39,785 nucleotides of DNA from Gammaproteobacteria bacterium (lineage in GTDB: Bacteria > Pseudomonadota > Gammaproteobacteria > Ga0077536): the NCBI GenBank assembly GCA_947450495.1, contig CANFVX010000002.1, positions 1 through 39,785 of the forward strand. Direction: 5' to 3'. This document shows, piece by piece, positions 19,080-27,904 of the stretch (positions are counted from its first letter, which is position 1; every line of letters starts with the position of its first letter). The position numbers and the translations under genes are program-made. The notes beneath the pieces were generated by a model, which was not told the origin of the DNA, did not search any database, and saw nothing but the letters and a program-made list of their open reading frames with translations.

Positions 19080-19104
19080 TTGCGCACAGCGATGTGCTCT
19101 TGGG

Positions 19105-19131
19105 AAACCCGCTTCGGCGGGTTTTTCTTTT
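19105..19131 (+). terminator. rho-independent terminator
   Basis: AAACCCGC-TTCG-GCGGGTTT: a perfect 8-bp stem with a UUCG tetraloop, followed by TTCTTTT, 26 nt after the PEP-CTERM gene stop. Confidence 0.85.
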
Positions 19132-19162
19132 GCCGGTTGATGGGAGGGGAAGCGGCGTGGTG

Positions 19163-20035
19163 ATGTCAATCGCAGCGATGGCCCGCCTGATTGCGCGGGA
19201 AATGCTCGGTGCGCGGCAGCAGGCGCGCGGCCCTACGCCGCTTGCACTGCTCAGCGAGGAAACCGTGCTGGACGCAATGCGCGGTGAGGGGCGCGCCGAA
19301 GGCCGGACCGCAGCGGGCTATCTCTATCACACGGCGCGCATCTCGCAGGTCTTGCAGGGTCGCCGGCGCTGCCTCGATCTGGGCTGCGGCACCGGCGTCC
19401 AACTCCTGCAGGTGGCGGGCTTCAATCCTGAAGTCCGGTTTGTAGGGGTTGATCAGAGCGCGACGCTGCTCGCCGCCGCCGAGGAGGACGCCAGGCGCCT
19501 TGGGCTTACCAACGTGAGCTTTCTGCGGGCAGACATGACCGGTCTTGCCGAGTTTGAAACCCGCGGCTTCGACGCGGTGGTCTCGACGATGAGCCTGCAC
19601 TTTTTGGCGGATCGCCCGGCACTGAGGGCGGCACTACTGGAAATGGCGCGCATCGGCGGCGTGGATGCCGCGTTTTATCTTGAGGATTTTGCGCGGCTCA
19701 AATCGCCGTTATCGGTGGCGTTTTTTCTTGACCGCAATGCGCAAGCGGCGCCCGATCCGTTTGACGCGCTCTATCGCGCGTCGCTCGAAGCCGCGTTCAC
19801 GCTGGATGAACTTAAAACCGAGATCGCCCACGCCCTGCCGCGCGCGGCGATGCATGTGACCAGTCCGGTGCCGTTCCTGCTGGTCGCCCATACGCCGGCC
19901 GCGCCGCTGCCGACCGCCTTGCGCGCACAATTCCGCTCGGCACGCGCCAGCCTAAGCCCCACTCAAAGTGCAGATCTGGACGCCTTGCGGCGCGCCTTCG
20001 CGCTGGGCGAATGGCGGGCCGACCCGTTCCACTGA
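19163..20035 (+). CDS. class I SAM-dependent methyltransferase
   Basis: Motif I LDLGCGTGVQLL, plus acidic post-I and motif II-like segments (FDAVVSTMSLHFL). The track start 19094 lies inside the terminator hairpin. Start moved to ATG 19163; GTG 19157 is also possible, 9 nt after the GGAGGGGA SD. Confidence 0.8.
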   Translation: MSIAAMARLIAREMLGARQQARGPTPLALLSEETVLDAMRGEGRAEGRTAAGYLYHTARISQVLQGRRRCLDLGCGTGVQLLQVAGFNPEVRFVGVDQSATLLAAAEEDARRLGLTNVSFLRADMTGLAEFETRGFDAVVSTMSLHFLADRPALRAALLEMARIGGVDAAFYLEDFARLKSPLSVAFFLDRNAQAAPDPFDALYRASLEAAFTLDELKTEIAHALPRAAMHVTSPVPFLLVAHTPAAPLPTALRAQFRSARASLSPTQSADLDALRRAFALGEWRADPFH

Positions 20036-20055
20036 GGGCCTCGCTTTCAGGCCCT
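20035..20055. terminator. hairpin between convergent genes (possible bidirectional terminator)
   Basis: AGGGCCT-CGCTTTC-AGGCCCT, a perfect 7-bp stem spanning both convergent stop codons (20033-20035 and 20047-20049). No clear U-tract. Confidence 0.4.
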
Positions 20056-21180
20056 GTGGCGGGTATTCGCCAGATAGTAGTCGAGCACCCTGGACAGCAC
20101 GACGCGGGTATCCGGGCGCTCGATGCCCAGCGCCTGCAGGCGCTCGCGGGTGCGGGTGTTGTCGAACACCTGCGCGCTGCCGAGGTAATCGAGATACACC
20201 GGCAAGGTGGCGAGGGTGCGCTGCTGGGCCGCCGGCAGCGCGCGCGCCAGCAGACTCATCAACCACAGAAAATACGCGGGCGGGAGCGGAATCGAGGGCC
20301 ACCAGGGCAGGCGACCCTCACGGCGCAAACGCGAACGGACCGTGTCGCGTAATTCAGTCAGCGGCAGCGCGCCGATCGGCCCGGCGCATAAATGCCAGAT
20401 TTCGCCCGCGCTATCCGGGCTGCGCGAGGCCGCCACGATGGCGTGCGCCACAAAGTCATTGGCGACGATATCCAGCACCGTATGCCCGAGTGCCGGATAG
20501 CAGCCAAGCGTGCGACGCCCGCTCAGAAATTCGCAGATGAACTGGAAAATCTGGAAGTGCGGCGTGACGCCGGTGCGCGAATCGCCCACCACCATGCTCG
20601 GGCGATGCACCGTCAGCGGTAATCCGGCGGCGGCGGCTTCGCGCAGCAGCACTTCTGATTCGGCTTTGGCTTCCTCATAGGTGTTGTGAAACGCGCGCGG
20701 CTCATCCAGCCAGCGCTCCGGCAGCGGACCCTGCCAGCGTCCCCCTACCCCCACCGTCGAGACCGCCTCCAGTTTGCGGAATCCCACGCAACGCCGGGCG
20801 AGTGCAATCAGGGTGGCGGTGGGGACGACCGTGGTTTCGCGCGCGATGGCGAGCGACTGGTTCAAGCGCACGCTGGCGGCGCAATGCACGATATGCGTAC
20901 AGCCTTGCTCCAACTCATGCTGATCGGCGGCGCTCAAACCGAGCGCCGGGGCGCTGATGTCGCCCGCCATCGCGCGCAAACGATGTTCCAAAGCCCCCGC
21001 CGGCAGCTGCAGATAATGGGCGCGCCAGAACTGCTTGAGGGCGTTGAAGCGGTCGGCGATCGAATGCCCGTTGCGTGCTCTCAACAGCACCACCACTTCA
21101 ACCTCCGGCAGGCCGAGCAAGGCGGGGATCAGCGCGCCGCCCACCACGCCGCTAGCCCCCGTGACGAAGTAGCAATCCAT
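20047..21180 (-). CDS. SDR-family thioester/fatty acyl reductase (NAD_binding_4, 'male sterility' type)
   Basis: N-terminal Rossmann motif FVTGASGVVGGAL, catalytic Y-x3-K (NTYEEAK), and the HCAASV segment typical of terminal reductase domains and fatty acyl-CoA reductases. Confidence 0.8.
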   Translation of the reverse strand: MDCYFVTGASGVVGGALIPALLGLPEVEVVVLLRARNGHSIADRFNALKQFWRAHYLQLPAGALEHRLRAMAGDISAPALGLSAADQHELEQGCTHIVHCAASVRLNQSLAIARETTVVPTATLIALARRCVGFRKLEAVSTVGVGGRWQGPLPERWLDEPRAFHNTYEEAKAESEVLLREAAAAGLPLTVHRPSMVVGDSRTGVTPHFQIFQFICEFLSGRRTLGCYPALGHTVLDIVANDFVAHAIVAASRSPDSAGEIWHLCAGPIGALPLTELRDTVRSRLRREGRLPWWPSIPLPPAYFLWLMSLLARALPAAQQRTLATLPVYLDYLGSAQVFDNTRTRERLQALGIERPDTRVVLSRVLDYYLANTRHRA

Positions 21181-21189
21181 ACGCTGTCC

Positions 21190-23001
21190 TTAAAGTCCCA
21201 ACATCAGCAAATCCGGGGCGAGGGCTTCGCAAAACCGCTCGCCTGCTCTGGCGTCGAGCGCGGCGTAAAGCCGATCGAGCAGGGGTTGATAGCGCGCCTC
21301 CAGCGCCCAACGGCGCAGCTTGAGGGAAGGCGTGAGGCTTTGGTTGGCGACCGTCAGCGGGGTGAGCGAGACCAGCAATCCCGCCGGGTGCGAATAGCCG
21401 GGCAGCGCCGCGAGACTGGCCGGCACGGCCGCCGCCAGTCGTTCGGCAAGCTGCCGGAAGGCCGCGGCATTCGTGAGGTTTTCAGGCTGCGGATCGGCGA
21501 GTGTGAGCAGGGCCACCGGCGCCTTGCGGCCCGCCCCGAACACCACCACATGGTCAACGCCGGGCAACTGCTGCAACACGCTTTCCAACAGCACCGGCGC
21601 GATCTTGCGCCCGGTCGAGGTTTTAAAAATCTCGCTTTTTCGGCCTGCGATGCGCAGATAGCCCTGGGCGTCGAGCTGCCCCAAATCGCCGGTATGCAAG
21701 TAGCCCTCGGCATCCACGGCGGGCGTCGTGCTCGCAGCGTTGAGATAGCCGTGAAAAACGCCGGGGCCGCGCACCAGTATTTCGCCGTCGTCGGCGATGG
21801 TGATTGCGTTAGGCGCGAGCACACGGCCTACTGTCCCCGCCTGATAGTCATCCAGCCGGTTCAGCGCCACGGGCACGATGTTTTCGCTCAGGCCGTAGGC
21901 TTCCAGCACCGGCAATCCCAGCGCCTGCAATTGTTCGAGCACCGCCAGGCCACAGGGCGCAGAGCCGCTGAGCATGGCGCGCACCTCACCGCCCACCGCG
22001 GCCCGCAGGCGCCGCAGCACCAGCCAATCTGCCGCCCAGTGCTGACACCGCAGGCAGGCGCCTGGCGGCTCGCCCGCGCGGTTTGACGCCGCCACGCGCG
22101 CCCCGACATCAACGGCCCAGGCCACAAGCCGTTGCTGCTGCGGCGAGCCCTCACGGCCCGCAAGGGCAAGACCCTGGGCCAGTTTTTCGTAGAAGCGCGG
22201 CACGCCAATCAACCAGTGCGGCCGGGCGATGGGCAGTATCTGGAGCAAGCGACGGGGCTCGGACAGCAACCAGCTCTGGGCCCCTGCCGCCACCGCGCAA
22301 AAGTTGATCACGCGCTGAAAGAGTCCGGACAACGGCAGCCAGCACACCAGTCGGTCGTCGGGATGAATCTGCGGAAAGGCGTGAAGGATCGCGTCCACCG
22401 CCACCGCACACTGCGCATGGGTGTAGACAATGCCACGCGGGTGGCCGGTGCTGCCGGAGGTGAACACGATGAGCGCCGGCGCGTTGGCGTTAAGGCCTTC
22501 GGCCGGCGCGACGCCCGGACTTGCCAGCAACGCCGACCATCGCCACCAGGCTTGCGTGACGCCCGCCGGTGCCGCCTCATCCGAGAAACAGATCACCCCC
22601 CGTAAGTTCGCGCGGGATGCGGCGGGCAGCCGCAGAAAGTTCGCGCTGTCGACCACCGCAAGCATGCCAATGCCGGCCGCGAGTAGCGTCTCGTCGAGCC
22701 TCTCGGCCGAATCCTGCGGGTCCAGCCCCACCACGACCGCCCCTGCCATGAGTGCCGCCACCTGCGTGAGTTCCCAGGGCAAATCGTTCGGCGCCAGAAT
22801 CCCGAGCCGCGTGCCGGGCGTCAGGCCGGCCGCCACCAGCGCGGCGGCAAGCGCTTCTGCTCGATGCAGGACCTCCAGCCAGGTGAGGCCCAGCCATTCG
22901 TCTTGCAGCCAATAGCGGAAAGCGATGAGGTCCGGCGTACGGCGCGCGCGCTCACGGTAGTAGTCGGGCAAGGTCCAGTGGCTGCCCGTGGCGGTAATCA
23001 C
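21190..23001 (-). CDS. AMP-dependent synthetase/ligase (acyl-CoA or acyl-AMP ligase family)
   Basis: AMP-binding core motif IVFTSGSTGHPRGIVYTH. Later motifs EAYGLSE, LHTGDLG and GRKSEIFKTSTGRKIAP. GTG start overlaps the upstream stop (GTGA at 22998-23001). Confidence 0.88.
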   Translation of the reverse strand: MITATGSHWTLPDYYRERARRTPDLIAFRYWLQDEWLGLTWLEVLHRAEALAAALVAAGLTPGTRLGILAPNDLPWELTQVAALMAGAVVVGLDPQDSAERLDETLLAAGIGMLAVVDSANFLRLPAASRANLRGVICFSDEAAPAGVTQAWWRWSALLASPGVAPAEGLNANAPALIVFTSGSTGHPRGIVYTHAQCAVAVDAILHAFPQIHPDDRLVCWLPLSGLFQRVINFCAVAAGAQSWLLSEPRRLLQILPIARPHWLIGVPRFYEKLAQGLALAGREGSPQQQRLVAWAVDVGARVAASNRAGEPPGACLRCQHWAADWLVLRRLRAAVGGEVRAMLSGSAPCGLAVLEQLQALGLPVLEAYGLSENIVPVALNRLDDYQAGTVGRVLAPNAITIADDGEILVRGPGVFHGYLNAASTTPAVDAEGYLHTGDLGQLDAQGYLRIAGRKSEIFKTSTGRKIAPVLLESVLQQLPGVDHVVVFGAGRKAPVALLTLADPQPENLTNAAAFRQLAERLAAAVPASLAALPGYSHPAGLLVSLTPLTVANQSLTPSLKLRRWALEARYQPLLDRLYAALDARAGERFCEALAPDLLMLGL

Positions 23002-24071
23002 GGCGTGAGTACCGGATCGTAGGCGCCGCGCGCTTCGGTGATCCGCAAGGATTCAGCGCTCAGCCCCAGCCAGTTCATTTGCTGAATCACGTTGTAGCCC
23101 AGCCCCACGCGCCACCGCACCATGGCGTCGACCACCGGTCCCATCACGCGCCACAGCGCGAGACTCGCCTTGCCTTCCCGAATCAGCGCGGAGAACTCCG
23201 GCGCATAAGGGTTGTAGCCAAAGTGTTTGAGATCGGAATACATCAGCAGCCAGTTGATGGGGTAATTGCTGAAGACCGGGCTCGCGTGCCGCGCACTCTT
23301 CACCAGCCCCAGCGCCACCACCTCGCGCATCACGGCCGCCTGGTCGTAAGGCCAGGCGTGAAACGGCGCGAGGTAGCGAGGAAAGCGGACGTTCGGCGGC
23401 CACTGGAGCGGATTGAAAAACCGCGCGAGGTCGGCCGCATCAAACAAGCCACTGCGCAGCAGCTGCGGGGGCGTCCAGTCGGTCTGCTCAATCAGCTGGC
23501 GTGAGAACTCATAGCGCATGCGCTCGGGCTCCGGCTGACCAGGCGAGTACCCCGCCATCACCAGCGGAATGTCTTTTTCCAGCGCGAGCCTGATGGCGTC
23601 GCCCTCAAACAACGGAGCGTAGACATAAGACACGGTGTAGACCGCGCCGCGCGCTTCCTGATGGCGCAAGAGATAGGCAAACAGACGACGGTAGAACTCG
23701 TCCGGCGGGGAATAGCTGATGTGATCGATCGACAGTCGCGCCAGGGTGTGCCGAATGTTGTCCCAGGCAATCGCGGGCAGATTCACATCCACGGTAAAGG
23801 CGAGCACCCGCAGGCGATGCTCCACCTTGAGCTTGTAGAGCAGCAGCGCGCTGTCTTTGCCACCGCTGAACGGCACCAGCACGTCGTATTGTCCGGTGCC
23901 GCGCGTGCTGGCCAGGGTGACCGCCAGATCGTCGGCAAACCCCCGCCGCTGAATTTCGGCCGTCTCCAGCAGTGCGGGCGCGAACTCGCGGCAATAAGCG
24001 CACACGCCGCGACGGTCAATCACCGCGCCCGGCGCGGCCCCGGGGAGCAAACAGCGTCGGCAGCGTTTCAT
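22998..24071 (-). CDS. Zn-ribbon + PP-loop ATP pyrophosphatase (N-acetyl sugar amidotransferase-like)
   Basis: N-terminal CRRC...GVCAYC four-Cys ribbon followed by the PP-loop LVPFSGGKDSALLL. This architecture matches the WbuX-type N-acetyl sugar amidotransferase family as I recall it. Confidence 0.7.
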   Translation of the reverse strand: MKRCRRCLLPGAAPGAVIDRRGVCAYCREFAPALLETAEIQRRGFADDLAVTLASTRGTGQYDVLVPFSGGKDSALLLYKLKVEHRLRVLAFTVDVNLPAIAWDNIRHTLARLSIDHISYSPPDEFYRRLFAYLLRHQEARGAVYTVSYVYAPLFEGDAIRLALEKDIPLVMAGYSPGQPEPERMRYEFSRQLIEQTDWTPPQLLRSGLFDAADLARFFNPLQWPPNVRFPRYLAPFHAWPYDQAAVMREVVALGLVKSARHASPVFSNYPINWLLMYSDLKHFGYNPYAPEFSALIREGKASLALWRVMGPVVDAMVRWRVGLGYNVIQQMNWLGLSAESLRITEARGAYDPVLTP

Positions 24072-24093
24072 GCCAATACCTCAGGTAAGTCAA

Positions 24094-25026
24094 TCAACAT
24101 GTCGGGCTGCCGCCGGTCAGCGCGTTGAGCAGCGCCTCCGCCTGTTGCAGATTGCAATAGCGCAGGCGCCACGCGTCGACGGCGTCAGTCAGCGCGCCAG
24201 CGCGTTCGAAGGCCTCCTGGCCCAGCAAGGTGTAATTGAAGGCGTTCTGCGTGAGCTGGGAAAAACATTCCGCCGGATGCAGCGCGCTGAATTCGGGGCT
24301 CGCGTCCGCGTCGTACTGCGGAAACACCACCCAGCGCGGGCGCGCGGTCTGATCCATGCGGCGCAGATGATCGAGCGGCGGCGAGAGATGCGAGACGGTG
24401 CCTTTGCGGGTGCCCGGAATGCAGGGGCCAAAAGTGGCGGCGGGCACGCGCTCCCGAATCAGCGCAATGGATTCGTTTTTGAGCGGAATCAGGCGCGGCA
24501 GCGGGTCGATGGTCAATTCGCGATCGCGAATAAGCGTGAATTCATCCGACAACAGGCGCCAGCCCCGATGGATGAGCCAGGCGCAGAGCGTGCTTTTACC
24601 CGCGCCCGGTTGGCCGGGCAGCAAGAGCGCGTGACCGTTGCGCTCGATCACTGCGGCGTGGAGCATCAGGTAGTGATGGGCGCGACTCGCCACACACCAG
24701 TTGATGGCCCACTCAAGATGCGCCAGCAGCGCACCCGGCGCGCACTCGGTAAAGGGCACGCCGTCTTCCAGCCCGAGGCAGAGCGGTCGTCGCAACGCGC
24801 GCGCGACCAGACTCTGCCCGAGCAAGCGGATCTCGCCGTCGGCGAAGCTGTCATCCGGCGCGAGGGGGTAGTCGGGATAGTAATCGTAGAGGCATTGCGC
24901 GAGTCGTCTATCGCGGCCCACAAGGCGCATCACAAAGGGCCCTAGCCTGAGATTGAGCCCGTCCGCGCAACGGGCGTGCAGTTCGCTGAAGGAGAGCCGC
25001 TTGAGCGTGGGCATGGGCGCACTCAT
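24094..25026 (-). CDS. HprK-related kinase (type A), HPr kinase/phosphorylase C-terminal-like P-loop protein
   Basis: P-loop LLLPGQPGAGKSTLCAWL followed by LLSDEF, as in the HPr kinase catalytic domain. 310 aa. ATGA overlap with the PqqD-like gene (25023-25026). Confidence 0.8.
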   Translation of the reverse strand: MSAPMPTLKRLSFSELHARCADGLNLRLGPFVMRLVGRDRRLAQCLYDYYPDYPLAPDDSFADGEIRLLGQSLVARALRRPLCLGLEDGVPFTECAPGALLAHLEWAINWCVASRAHHYLMLHAAVIERNGHALLLPGQPGAGKSTLCAWLIHRGWRLLSDEFTLIRDRELTIDPLPRLIPLKNESIALIRERVPAATFGPCIPGTRKGTVSHLSPPLDHLRRMDQTARPRWVVFPQYDADASPEFSALHPAECFSQLTQNAFNYTLLGQEAFERAGALTDAVDAWRLRYCNLQQAEALLNALTGGSPTC

Positions 25027-25328: not shown

Positions 25329-25904
25329 TTAGCCGGCCCTGCCCCAGAGCGATTTGAGGCACGCACCACTGAGGCTGGTGACCAGCGCATCCGGCGGCGT
25401 GCGCGGCTCGCCCACGGCCAGCACCGAGCCGTCCCGCGCGCTGAAATGCACGATCGCCAGCCCTTCGCGACAAGGCTTGGCGGACAAGCTGCGCTTGAGA
25501 TCCAGCGAGCGGCTGTTGCCCGGCGCGTTGATGAACGGAATTTCGGCATCGCCGACGGGTTCACCGGTCGCAACGTAGCGCCAGCACGCTTGCTGGTCGC
25601 GGCTCCCGATCCCTTCGAAATATTGCGCGACGCCTGAGGCGCTATAGCCGGCAATCTGGCCGCGCCGGTCTTTCTGCGCAATGAGTTGGTCGTAGCACGC
25701 CACACGCTCGCGGAAGAACTCGTCCTTTGCAAACGCGAGAGGCCGACACGGTCGCTCACTCGGCGGCTGGCCGCAGGCGAGACTGGTGCGCGCCGCCGCC
25801 TGTGCGGCAGTGCTGCCCAAAGTCATCACCGCCGGCAAGGCCAGCGTCGTGCCTTTGAGAAAACGTCGACGACGTTCATTGGGCTGAGTCGTTGGCTTAT
25901 CCAT
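25329..25904 (-). CDS. Tat-signal secreted protein of unknown function (6 Cys)
   Basis: Start at MDKPTTQPNERRRRFLKGTTLALPAVMTLGSTAAQAAA (ATG 25904, GGAG SD 8 nt upstream); the track ORF to 26204 is an Arg-rich extension. Twin-arginine motif RRRFLK plus h-region plus AQA. The mature part of about 150 aa has 6 Cys and matches no family I recognise. Its stop TAA abuts the PqqD ATG with zero spacer. Confidence 0.7.
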   Translation of the reverse strand: MDKPTTQPNERRRRFLKGTTLALPAVMTLGSTAAQAAARTSLACGQPPSERPCRPLAFAKDEFFRERVACYDQLIAQKDRRGQIAGYSASGVAQYFEGIGSRDQQACWRYVATGEPVGDAEIPFINAPGNSRSLDLKRSLSAKPCREGLAIVHFSARDGSVLAVGEPRTPPDALVTSLSGACLKSLWGRAG

Positions 25905-26023
25905 CAGCACCACTCCAAAGGGTAAGAAGAGGATTCGGGGTTTTCTTGCGCCATGCCAAGTGGCGTGACTCGCAACAATGATTTCCTTGCGCGACGCCAG
26001 CGGGCCGCTGTAGCGGCGCTTGA

Positions 26024-27163
26024 ATGCCGACCACGCCACGCCGTCGCCAACTGAACTGGAGGGATCCCTTGCGCAAACAATTTCTGCTGGCGCTGCGCCA
26101 GCCCGCACTGCTCGCCAACCACGACCAACGCGCCTGGCAACACTTGCTGGCACTGGGCCGCCTGCACGCCGTTTCCGGACGGTGGCACGCCCAACTGGAA
26201 GCACTGGATTGGTTGCCGCAGGTGCCTACTCCGGTGCGCCGTCATCTGTGGTCTGACCATTGCGTGGCCAGCGCGCACGAGCGCCGCGCACGCTGGGAAA
26301 TCGACCGTCTGAGCAGAGTGCTCAATCCCACCGGCATCCCGTGGGCATTGCTCAAAGGCGCGGCGTACCTCGCGGCCGATCTGCCAAGCGCGCGCGGTCG
26401 CCTGTTGGCGGATGTGGATGTGCTGGTGCCTCACGCGGAGCTCGCCCGGGTGGAGCGTCTTCTGCACCAGCAAGGCTGGCACGACACCCCTCACGATGCT
26501 TATGACGATCGGTACTACCGCGAATGGATGCACGAACTCCCTCCTTTGCAACACGGCACCCGTGGCACCACGCTTGATGTTCATCACACCCTCCTGCCCC
26601 TGACCGATCCGCTGCATCCCGATGGCGGCGAATTGCTGAGCCGCCGGGTGGCCGCCAGCGGCGAGACCTGCGTGCTCGCCCCGGCCGATCTCGTGCTGCA
26701 CAGCGTGCTTCACGGGTTTCATGCGGGCGACCTGCAGCACTGCTTGCGCGATGTGCTGGACGTCTACGAACTCATGACCCACTTCGTTTTGCAGTCAGGC
26801 GATGCGTTCTGGATCTCGCTGGTTGACCGCGCTTTGAGACTACGCGCCGTGCGCGCCCTGCGAATTGCGTTGAGTCAGGCTGAAGGACATTTCGAGTTGG
26901 CCGTGCCGGCGTTCGTCAAACGCGAACTCCGACAGGCCGATCGCGGGCTCACGCCGGTGGCCTTGCTTGCGCAGTTGATGAACCAGCTGGTGGTGCCGGC
27001 CTTGCCGCCGGCGCGGATGTCGCGCATCGCGCATCGCGTGCTGAGCGTGCGCACCCATCTGCTGAAAATGCCGCTGCGGCGTCTGGTCCCGCACGCCCTC
27101 CACAAGACCTGGCAGAAGTGGCGTCCGGATACCGGCGCCGCGCCCACCGTGGTGGTGAAATAG
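26024..27163 (+). CDS. nucleotidyltransferase family protein (NTP_transf_5 / 'uncharacterised nucleotidyltransferase' type)
   Basis: LLKGAAYLAADLPSARGRLLADVDVLVPHAELARVERLLHQQGW ... HELPPLQHGTRGTTLDVHHTLLP matches the pattern of this family (Pol-beta-like DxD, later HH motif). Divergent from the Tat-protein operon. The start codon is not certain. Confidence 0.75.
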   Translation: MPTTPRRRQLNWRDPLRKQFLLALRQPALLANHDQRAWQHLLALGRLHAVSGRWHAQLEALDWLPQVPTPVRRHLWSDHCVASAHERRARWEIDRLSRVLNPTGIPWALLKGAAYLAADLPSARGRLLADVDVLVPHAELARVERLLHQQGWHDTPHDAYDDRYYREWMHELPPLQHGTRGTTLDVHHTLLPLTDPLHPDGGELLSRRVAASGETCVLAPADLVLHSVLHGFHAGDLQHCLRDVLDVYELMTHFVLQSGDAFWISLVDRALRLRAVRALRIALSQAEGHFELAVPAFVKRELRQADRGLTPVALLAQLMNQLVVPALPPARMSRIAHRVLSVRTHLLKMPLRRLVPHALHKTWQKWRPDTGAAPTVVVK

Positions 27164-27169
27164 CGTCGC

Positions 27170-27904
27170 TCAGGTCGGGCTTCCCGCGAGGTTGCGCTTG
27201 ATGATGTAGAGCAGGCCGATGAGGTCGTCCGATAATCCCTGCTCGAACTCCGAGCCCTCCAGGCGATAAGGGATGCGCTGGCCGTGATGCTCAACGGGCG
27301 CACCGATTTGTTCAAACAGGATCCCGTAGGCGCGGAGGCGACGCGCCAAACGGGGCTCCATCAAAGCGAATACCCGTTCCACCTGGCGCCCTAGCGCGAG
27401 CGCGGCAGCACCGACATACAAGCCTGCGGCAATATGGGGGAAGCCGCGTCGTTCAACGCTCAGATTCGGATGGTCACCGTTCGACTCGCTGACCGGCGAC
27501 AGCTTTTCTTTCCCGCGTCGGCGAAATTCGCCAATGACCGCAACGCGGGAGATTTCCGCCGAGGTCTTGCGCCACAGGGCACCGTGGTGCTGACGCATGG
27601 CCTCGGCTGCGGCCGGCGCAAGAGGCTCAAACGGAAACGCTTGTAAGGGATCGAGAGGGTCGGCCAGCACCAGACGCAGGCAGCCGATGAAGCGCGCGCT
27701 TGCCCGGTGCCGCAAGAGGACAAATATCGCGCGGCGATCGAAGCTGTCCGACTCTTCGGCGAAATTGCCCACCGCCGTCGGCTCCCAGCCCAATTCCTGC
27801 GCGTAGACCTGATAGCGCAAGCGAAAGACTTCATTGCGCAATTCAGGCGTCGTGGCTTCTACCACTTCGAAATAGCGTGGGAAATCGCAGACCCCTTCAA
27901 CCAT
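27170..27904 (-). CDS. PEP-CTERM/exosortase system-associated acyltransferase (GNAT fold, FeeM / N-acyl amino acid synthase / LuxI-like)
   Basis: N-terminus FEVVEATTPELRNEVFRLRYQVYAQELGWEP is the signature of this family. GAGGA SD. Lies 24 nt downstream of the prsR stop on the same strand. Confidence 0.82.
   Translation of the reverse strand: MVEGVCDFPRYFEVVEATTPELRNEVFRLRYQVYAQELGWEPTAVGNFAEESDSFDRRAIFVLLRHRASARFIGCLRLVLADPLDPLQAFPFEPLAPAAAEAMRQHHGALWRKTSAEISRVAVIGEFRRRGKEKLSPVSESNGDHPNLSVERRGFPHIAAGLYVGAAALALGRQVERVFALMEPRLARRLRAYGILFEQIGAPVEHHGQRIPYRLEGSEFEQGLSDDLIGLLYIIKRNLAGSPT

Follow-up and report, generated by a model that had tools for sequence, protein, structure and literature searches.

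A conserved PP-loop ATPase, ligase and reductase trio in an exosortase A locus of a lake-water gammaproteobacterium: a candidate tailoring module for a lipoamino acid

Introduction

The N-acetyl-sugar amidotransferases (NASATs) share the family signature CXXCXn[GN]XCXXC, which was set out in the paper on the structure 8wex (PMC10607449). Clusters that tailor N-acyl amino acids have been described as OxzA/OxzB in Pseudoalteromonas rubra and as TyzABC and TrzAS in Mycobacterium tuberculosis (PMC10404671, PMC12856293), and in the Oxz and Tyz/Trz systems a synthase, a flavin oxidase and an ATP-dependent cyclase act on N-acyl aromatic amino acids (PMC10404671). Synthases of N-acyl amino acids were also linked with PEP-CTERM systems by a 2011 study, as far as the passages that cite it in PMC11072679 and PMC4897644 convey. 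In Methylomonas LW13, deletion of the synthase abolishes polysaccharide band formation. To our knowledge, it is still not known to what exosortase A (XrtA) attaches PEP-CTERM proteins, nor why N-acyl amino acid synthases sit in such loci. Here we describe three adjacent genes, termed the trio below, that encode a PP-loop enzyme, an adenylate-forming ligase and a reductase in the window, i.e. the whole 39.8 kb contig CANFVX010000002.1 from a lake-water metagenome-assembled genome (MAG; 3.47 Mb, 87.6% complete). A literature search found no description of the trio.

Results and discussion

Conservation of the trio

The window carries a complete XrtA exopolysaccharide locus on the minus strand, as recognized by family profile searches, and the trio lies inside it, between the prsK–prsR–acyltransferase genes and a PEP-CTERM gene with prsT. 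Its members (lengths in amino acids, aa) are as follows.

22998–24071, minus: zinc-ribbon PP-loop ATP pyrophosphatase, 357 aa, ATG start (open reading frame with C4 ribbon and SGGKDS)
21190–23001, minus: adenylate-forming ligase, 603 aa, GTG start (AMP-binding and AMP-binding_C_3)
20047–21180, minus: NAD(P)H thioester/acyl reductase, stand-alone, 377 aa, ATG start (NAD_binding_4, R-domain type)

Scanning a single genome for each species gave 191 relatives of the PP-loop protein, the best 80 of which were analysed with 10 kb flanks; the window brings the set to 81 loci. Completeness was scored in the 66 species-level loci with at least 3.3 kb downstream, whereas neighbours were counted in those 42 loci whose flanks reach 8 kb or more to either side. 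Ligase and reductase genes both lie beside the PP-loop gene in all of the former (66/66), in the order PP-loop, ligase, reductase downstream in nearly all of them, with median gaps of 9.5 nucleotides (nt) between the first pair and −4 nt between the second. Furthermore, a library-wide HMMER search found fusions in distant relatives, namely PP-loop::ligase (P0214, 956 aa) and reductase::PP-loop (P0206 and P0267), and on the L086 contig a FeeM gene, P0214 and a reductase gene follow one another in this order. Fusion of the PP-loop enzyme to each of its partners, taken with a gene order that does not vary, speaks strongly for a single pathway shared by all three. The trio is a self-contained unit and probably the invariant core of a widespread biosynthetic operon. 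Most of the genomes that carry it belong to the Rhodocyclaceae, the Thiobacillaceae, the Nitrosomonadaceae, Methylomonas or the window's own clade.

In the verrucomicrobial locus L002 (contig PNOA01000072.1), two B12-binding radical S-adenosylmethionine (SAM) enzymes, an EryCIII-like glycosyltransferase and a FeeM gene surround the trio, and one of the radical SAM genes sits between ligase and reductase. Five MAG contigs with an XrtA-type locus of this kind (L014, L017, L018, L068 and L078) are titled Klebsiella pneumoniae, Hydrogenophaga intermedia or Enterobacteriaceae; these titles look wrong, as gene content and PP-loop phylogeny are those of uncultured freshwater Gammaproteobacteria.

The PP-loop protein

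The PP-loop protein contains the motifs CRRC...CAYC and SGGKDS. The latter (residues 69–74) is invariant among 40 homologues, as are all four cysteines of the tetracysteine element (C4-x2-C7...G22-V-C24-x2-C27), which meets the NASAT signature. The match to TIGR03573 (WbuX) scores 78.9 bits, under the cut-off of 203.2, and aligns residues 1–257 only; a Pfam search of the protein matched no family, and a profile search of the PDB gave a NASAT as the best relative, over residues 15–128 only. The AlphaFold2 model has a pLDDT (predicted local distance difference test) of 91.4 and its best fold match is the Legionella NASAT 8wex, with template-modelling (TM) scores of 0.65/0.60 and 18–19% identity over the whole length (∼360–375 columns), followed by the tRNA thiolases NcsA and TtuA with TM scores of ∼0.35. 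Judged by this predicted fold, the protein is a distant structural relative of the NASATs and represents a very conserved, uncatalogued subfamily that has no NCBIfam or Pfam model. Because the whole-length fold match is accompanied by the PP-loop and by the exact tetracysteine pattern, the enzyme presumably works as a NASAT does, by ATP-dependent activation of an amide carbonyl.

Hundreds of close homologues (60–77% identical) occur in Pseudomonadota, Desulfobacterota and Verrucomicrobiota, nearly all of them annotated as hypothetical. Across phyla the PP-loop protein retains 60–77% identity, compared with 31–52% for the ligase and 35–63% for the reductase. That it is far better conserved than its partners suggests that what it recognizes is a portion of the substrate that stays constant.

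The ligase and the reductase

The ligase matches the Pfam families AMP-binding (PF00501, 198.9 bits) and AMP-binding_C_3 (PF23562, 37.4 bits), both above cut-offs, and contains TSGSTGHPRG (A3), GRKSEIFKTSTGRKIAP and TPSLKLRR (with the A10 lysine). Its best NCBIfam match is FadD11, over the full length, with 226.5 bits against a cut-off of 950, and an extra segment between A3 and A5 looks by eye like an ACSL-type helix. From these sequence features the ligase is assigned to the long-chain acyl-CoA synthetase (FadD11/ACSL-like) type. TIGR03098, the usual XrtA-associated acyl-CoA ligase, gave 103.2 bits against a cut-off of 592.35, and no copy above the cut-off was found anywhere in the MAG (87.6% complete), which rules out the classic XrtA ligase set as the identity of these genes.

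The reductase matches NAD_binding_4 (PF07993) with 154.3 bits and has both TGASGVVG (TGxxGxxG) and YEEAK (YxxxK). Among NCBIfam models PRK07201 matches best (135 bits, cut-off 549), a model whose name says no more than 'SDR family oxidoreductase', and TIGR01746 scores 121.7 bits (cut-off 213); of the solved structures, that of the MxaA terminal reductase comes closest (1.2e-23). It is a stand-alone protein, neither attached to nor beside a peptidyl or acyl carrier protein (PCP or ACP): the window's contig has no PP-binding match (PF00550), and the only two in the genome are on other contigs. If PRK07201 covers carrier-independent fatty acyl-CoA reductases, as we take it to do, a missing carrier protein presents no problem.

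An earlier sequence-only reading of this region had assigned the three products as a NASAT-like PP-loop enzyme, an adenylate-forming ligase and an NAD_binding_4 reductase and had pointed to the lack of a carrier-protein gene and to the contrast with the classic XrtA set of ligase, decarboxylase and ACP. The assignments are borne out by family matches and motifs (four-Cys ribbon, SGGKDS, TSGSTGHPRG, TGASGVVG and YEEAK were all found in the sequences), the contig is indeed devoid of PP-binding matches, and the contrast holds, with a ligase that is not TIGR03098, no decarboxylase and no ACP. Its coordinates, its overlap and its gaps (4, 9 and 22 nt) were likewise reproduced from the open reading frames.

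Gene spacing and expression

The stop of the PP-loop gene and the start of the ligase gene overlap by 4 nt (22998–23001), and 9 nt (21181–21189) separate ligase from reductase. Upstream, the trio adjoins a kinase cassette (HPr-rel-A system, TIGR04352 and TIGR04353), of which the HprK-like frame ends at 24094, i.e. 22 nt before the PP-loop gene.

24072–24093, minus: HprK/PP-loop junction, 22 nt (GAGG ribosome-binding site at a distance of 8 nt from the ATG; no terminator-like or promoter-like match)

Each of the six junctions between 25904 and 20047 is at most 22 nt and no terminator-like site was found within the gaps of this stretch. Scans for sigma-54 and sigma-70 promoters gave no matches above chance, and none in the gaps 25905–26023 and 24072–24093. 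Metatranscriptome fragments of 150–260 nt from related lake and river strains cover parts of the PP-loop and HprK genes, and none of them crosses 24071–24094. From the spacing, a single transcript for the six genes is plausible, and in the window's lineage the cassette and the trio may share one.

RNA-seq contigs of Nitrosomonas europaea from three independent studies span a flavoenzyme gene together with the trio unbroken and share their 5' boundary; they show that the genes are expressed and are compatible with one transcript, which such contigs cannot prove. In this locus (L062:7000-15000) the contigs all start at ∼7.52–7.54 kb and extend across both flavoenzyme gene and trio, and the gap at 7.40–7.52 kb suggests a transcription start there.

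Genomic neighbours

All open reading frames in the flanks were clustered and the recurrent clusters annotated. Those found most often beside the trio, out of the 42 well-flanked loci, are

LolC/E-like permeases (usually two), 20 loci
FeeM-type N-acyl amino acid synthases within 10 kb, 17 loci
560-aa FAD_binding_4 enzyme, 16 loci
PEP-CTERM proteins, 16 loci
EryCIII-like family 1 (GT1) glycosyltransferase, 12 loci
LolA_like protein, 10 loci
DUF1302-like outer-membrane protein, 9 loci
LolD-like ATPase, 8 loci
methyltransferase, 7 loci
GMC oxidoreductase, 6 loci

At least one lipid or export marker is present in 35 of the 42 and an XrtA-system marker lies within 10 kb in 34. XrtA itself scores above cut-off in 38 of 50 trio genomes, compared with 67 of 400 genomes sampled across the class, and the N-acyl amino acid synthase family PF21926 is present in 38 of the 50. 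In the window, the FeeM-type gene lies 3.1 kb upstream of the trio, with the kinase cassette between them.

27170–27904, minus: PEP-CTERM/exosortase-associated acyltransferase of the FeeM/N-acyl amino acid synthase type (TIGR03694, 221.9 bits, cut-off 112)

This acyltransferase, overlooked as a partner by the sequence-only reading, is the probable supplier of the trio's substrate. That reading had proposed a reduced or amidated lipid or small molecule as the product; the general lipid idea fits the lipid-type rather than sugar-type neighbours and its exact chemistry stays hypothetical.

The recurring FAD enzyme is of the vanillyl-alcohol oxidase/p-cresol methylhydroxylase (VAO/PCMH) type (1e-85 to 1e-75). 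Enzymes of this group oxidize 4-alkylphenols via quinone methides, and N-acyl-tyrosine is the classic FeeM product; activity on 4-alkylphenols fits a tyrosine-derived head group. Identity of the FAD enzyme with alkyl-dihydroxyacetone phosphate (DHAP) synthase, which would have indicated ether lipids, was ruled out by the match to AGPS (1e-8 versus 1e-85 for VAO/PCMH).

Methyltransferase homologues occur in 15 of the ∼81 clustered loci and tblastn matches in 14 loci. Within the window's clade the methyltransferase gene directly follows the reductase gene in L006, L007, L008, L010 and L068 and follows it closely, with called frames in between, in L013, L015 and L017. Among more distant PP-loop relatives (34–40% identity), one, 40% identical, is encoded beside an MMPL transporter, a LolA-like protein and ThiF, another beside an Acetyltransf_5 gene (PF13444) and a radical SAM enzyme, and a third beside FAD_binding_4 and NAD_binding_4 genes. 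In Methylomonas genomes the trio directly follows the TIGR03013 sugar transferase.

The flavoenzyme at L003:3710-5392, which has homologues in 23 loci, stands directly beside the trio and hints at a 4-hydroxyphenyl (tyrosine) group on the lipid. A set comprising a LolA_like protein, a LolD-like ATPase, a DUF1302-like protein and two LolC/E-like permeases lies near the trio in L021 (5877-8799), L062, L081, L083 and others; this recurrent export set has the look of an outer-membrane delivery route reserved for a lipid or lipoprotein.

Proposed pathway

On a modest balance of probability, we take the trio to be a tailoring module for an exosortase-associated lipoamino acid, i.e. an amino acid that bears a long N-acyl chain. 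The reaction sequence, substrate and product set out here are a hypothesis built from context. The FeeM-type acyltransferase would join a fatty acyl chain to an amino acid, and the ACSL-type ligase would then adenylate the remaining free carboxylate and probably thioesterify it to coenzyme A (CoA). The stand-alone R-domain reductase would turn the carboxylate into an aldehyde or alcohol with no need of a carrier protein. The NASAT-like PP-loop enzyme would use ATP to activate (adenylate) the N-acyl amide carbonyl oxygen, leading with ammonia to an amidine or otherwise to ring closure; N-acetyl groups are activated in this way by its sugar-specific relatives. The adjacent methyltransferase may methylate the product, which would finally be delivered to the envelope. 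The company that the core keeps in other lineages, namely a flavoenzyme specific for phenols, a GT1 glycosyltransferase and exporters of the Lol-like or MMPL kind, makes a lipid of the envelope or cell surface the probable product, one that goes along with the exopolysaccharide system of XrtA and PEP-CTERM.

Several observations weigh against this assignment. Only ∼40% of the well-flanked loci have a FeeM-family gene within 10 kb, none of the partners is universal, and ligase and reductase alone could simply make a fatty alcohol from a free fatty acid. The flavoenzyme, GT1 and LolA-like partners (and likewise the GMC partner) have no counterpart in the window's own MAG, which is 87.6% complete. 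Among the 68 XrtA genomes of the class sample, a close PP-loop homologue is found only in G179 and in the window's genome (∼1/67); the trio, present in a few percent of XrtA genomes, is not a general component of XrtA systems. The Thiothrix trio genome shows no XrtA or HprK_rel_A match, so that the role of the trio is not strictly tied to the exosortase. Finally, the genome-level association with HprK_rel_A described below is not explained by a lipid model other than through shared lineage.

The alternative that survives best, and which we consider unlikely, is that ligase and reductase act on a free long-chain fatty acid, via acyl-CoA, to supply a fatty alcohol or aldehyde for a glycolipid or wax-type envelope lipid, with the PP-loop enzyme directed at some other group and the substrate not being supplied by the N-acyl amino acid synthase. 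An ACSL/FadD11-like ligase beside a stand-alone reductase (PRK07201 and TIGR01746, both below cut-offs) and no carrier protein would suit such a route, as would the GT1 glycosyltransferase, GMC oxidoreductase and Lol/DevA-like ABC exporters that recur nearby and the 25 of 42 loci with no FeeM gene within 10 kb. It gives no role, however, to the PP-loop enzyme, which is the most conserved of the three, is missing from no locus and in distant relatives is found in fusion with either partner; moreover, the recurring flavoenzyme is phenol-specific (1e-85) and not an alkyl-DHAP synthase (1e-8), and in L086 a FeeM gene directly precedes the fused version.

The kinase cassette

The window's cassette, apart from the junction given above, comprises

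26024–27163, plus: NTP_transf_5 gene, 161 bits
25329–25904, minus: 191-aa twin-arginine translocation (Tat) protein
upstream of the trio, minus: PqqD_rel_X (54.7 bits) and HprK_rel_A (311 bits)

A further frame at 25904–26782 (minus) was rejected as an antisense artefact, having no family match and lying opposite the NTP_transf_5 gene; the minus-strand operon accordingly begins at 25904, divergent from that gene.

If the trio belonged functionally to this cassette, the six genes would form one pathway whose small molecule is attached to, or acts on, the protein substrate of the kinase/PqqD cassette. The sequence-only reading had drawn such a tie from position, and both modules are on the same strand across a 22 nt gap that holds no terminator-like site. 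The arrangement is kept in eight related species loci, so that the cassette adjoins the trio in nine of 81 loci including the window. In a maximum-likelihood tree of the PP-loop proteins, however, these nine rows all fall within a single 16-row clade, with none among the 65 rows elsewhere (Fisher p = 4e-8). Even within this clade, rhamnose genes (rmlB and rmlA) occupy the slot between acyltransferase and trio in the sister loci L010 and L017, and in L005 the trio has a divergent FeeM-cNMP gene as its immediate neighbour. Where relatives share the window's arrangement, their HprK-to-PP-loop gaps measure 25–171 nt, as against the trio's own medians of 9.5 and −4 nt, and the fusions and recurrent partners indicate FeeM rather than the kinase. 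Because adjacency is limited to one clade, rhamnose genes fill the slot in sisters and the gap to the kinase is wider, the cassette is, by position, a separate module, a lineage-specific occupant of a variable slot between acyltransferase and trio.

At the genome level the picture is more mixed. Comparing the 50 trio genomes with the sample of 400 genomes spread over the class, HprK_rel_A scores above cut-off in 37/50 against 30/400, counts that ignore shared ancestry. Among XrtA genomes the figures are 33/38 with the trio and 24/67 in the sample (odds ratio ∼12, again ignoring kinship), and in several genomes cassette and trio, often 20–85 kb apart, share a contig. The test takes no account of phylogeny, and in the reverse direction the trio is present in only two of the 31 kinase-family genomes of the class sample. 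Co-conservation with the cassette in other genomes, the lack of which the sequence-only reading had named as speaking against its proposal, thus fails for adjacency. Our reading of the co-occurrence is one of nested accessory content in rich XrtA regions; a looser, system-level link of trio and kinase family within the XrtA system is possible. Membership of the trio in a six-gene kinase pathway we regard as distinctly unlikely.

Two genomes deserve mention here. In the genome of L011, the HprK_rel_A gene (G004:C45:3411-4249) has an in-frame TAG and is possibly a pseudogene, or else carries a sequencing error; the neighbouring trio is intact. On the chromosome of Methylomonas sp. TEB (L036, G017), the trio lies 37 kb from an HprK-related kinase gene and ∼494 kb from the XrtA gene, which indicates that XrtA accessory modules can cluster together away from the exosortase.

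Further readings

With more speculation, trio and N-acyl amino acid synthase might make a nitrogen-modified lipid of a kind not yet described that is exported by Lol-like machinery and, in these lineages, serves at the cell surface as membrane acceptor or modulator in XrtA-dependent PEP-CTERM sorting; we give this proposal little credence. In such a scheme an N-acyl amino aldehyde, its amide turned into an amidine, could, for example, cyclize to a 2-alkyl-imidazoline or imidazole.

Least probable of all is that the PP-loop protein is an ordinary NASAT making an acetamidino sugar for the XrtA exopolysaccharide while ligase and reductase serve some other decoration: the NASAT family is its best relative in sequence and fold, and the exopolysaccharide locus has glmS, a deacetylase, a FemAB-like gene and glycosyltransferases, but the TIGR03573 score and the 18–19% identity are low, none of the 85 loci searched has a HisF/HisA-like gene, a long-chain ligase and a reductase are the protein's obligate partners, the trio is met at sites apart from polysaccharide genes too (Thiothrix locus L003 and verrucomicrobial locus L002), and distant relatives too are found in lipid contexts. 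In a sugar or O-antigen context the expected partners of a NASAT are presumably HisH/HisF-like ammonia suppliers of the WbuY/WbuZ type; a glutaminase/cyclase partner was rejected for the trio on the lack of HisF/HisA-like genes in these loci. Glutamine amidotransferase (GATase) families were absent from the gene calls of the fetched contigs, in which HisH itself was not searched for separately.

Remaining features of the locus

The first part of the locus runs glmS, TIGR03013 sugar transferase, prsK, prsR, TIGR03694 acyltransferase, kinase cassette and trio. Beyond the trio, on the plus strand, are a methyltransferase gene and one PEP-CTERM protein; methyltransferase and reductase genes are convergent, with stops 11 nt apart.

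19094–20035, plus: class I SAM methyltransferase (Methyltransf_31/25/11)

The locus further contains prsT, export, chain-length and tyrosine-kinase genes, genes for an outer-membrane protein, an ATPase, a deacetylase, a FemAB-like protein and glycosyltransferases, XrtA-EpsI and an O-antigen-ligase-like gene. A second exosortase-like gene of the same genome (G000:C63:9082-9861) lies on another contig and scores 193 bits, just under the XrtA cut-off.

Significance and comparison with known systems

The analysis defines a fixed PP-loop/ligase/reductase set downstream of an exosortase-associated synthase and has a bearing on the use that exosortase A systems make of lipids. The unit has a wide distribution among bacteria of environmental importance: it occurs in the cultured and genetically tractable Nitrosomonas europaea and Methylomonas as well as in the major wastewater organisms Accumulibacter, Propionivibrio and Thiobacillus. 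Lipid amides are moreover suggested as a second class of substrate for a fold that until now had been linked with the synthesis of acetamidino sugars alone. For annotation, kinase cassette and trio are to be treated as separate modules.

With the NASATs (WbuX, WbpG, LpNASAT 8wex and TIGR03573) the PP-loop protein shares the whole-length fold, the SGGxDS PP-loop, the zinc motif and a length of ∼360 aa. The trio loci differ in having no HisF-like or O-antigen genes nearby and in that the PP-loop protein is coupled or fused to a ligase and a reductase among lipid neighbours. In function, the Oxz and Tyz/Trz pathways come closest. As in these and in the fee clusters, a synthase of N-acyl amino acids is encoded with tailoring genes, and the flavoenzyme of other loci hints at an aromatic (tyrosine) head group. 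Unlike the Oxz and Tyz systems, the trio has a PP-loop enzyme in place of ThiF or a nitroreductase, its ligase–reductase pair has no counterpart there and the set is associated with XrtA loci; no nitroreductase-superfamily or ThiF-type domain was found in the three trio proteins, the only ThiF gene being the one beside the 40%-identical relative.

Carboxylic acid reductases (CARs) and fatty acyl-CoA reductase pairs with MxaA-type R domains resemble the ligase–reductase pair in that adenylation is followed by NAD(P)H-dependent reduction of the activated carboxylate to an aldehyde or alcohol. In the trio, by contrast, each of the two activities has a protein to itself, a carrier domain between them is lacking, and both are obligatorily linked with the PP-loop enzyme. 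Compared with the TIGR03098/03099 set of ligase, decarboxylase and ACP, the trio has another type of ligase, no decarboxylase and no ACP. With the PEP-CTERM/XrtA accessory genes in general (TIGR03694 and the TIGR03098/03099 set), it has in common its place inside an XrtA locus and its strong co-occurrence with XrtA across genomes.

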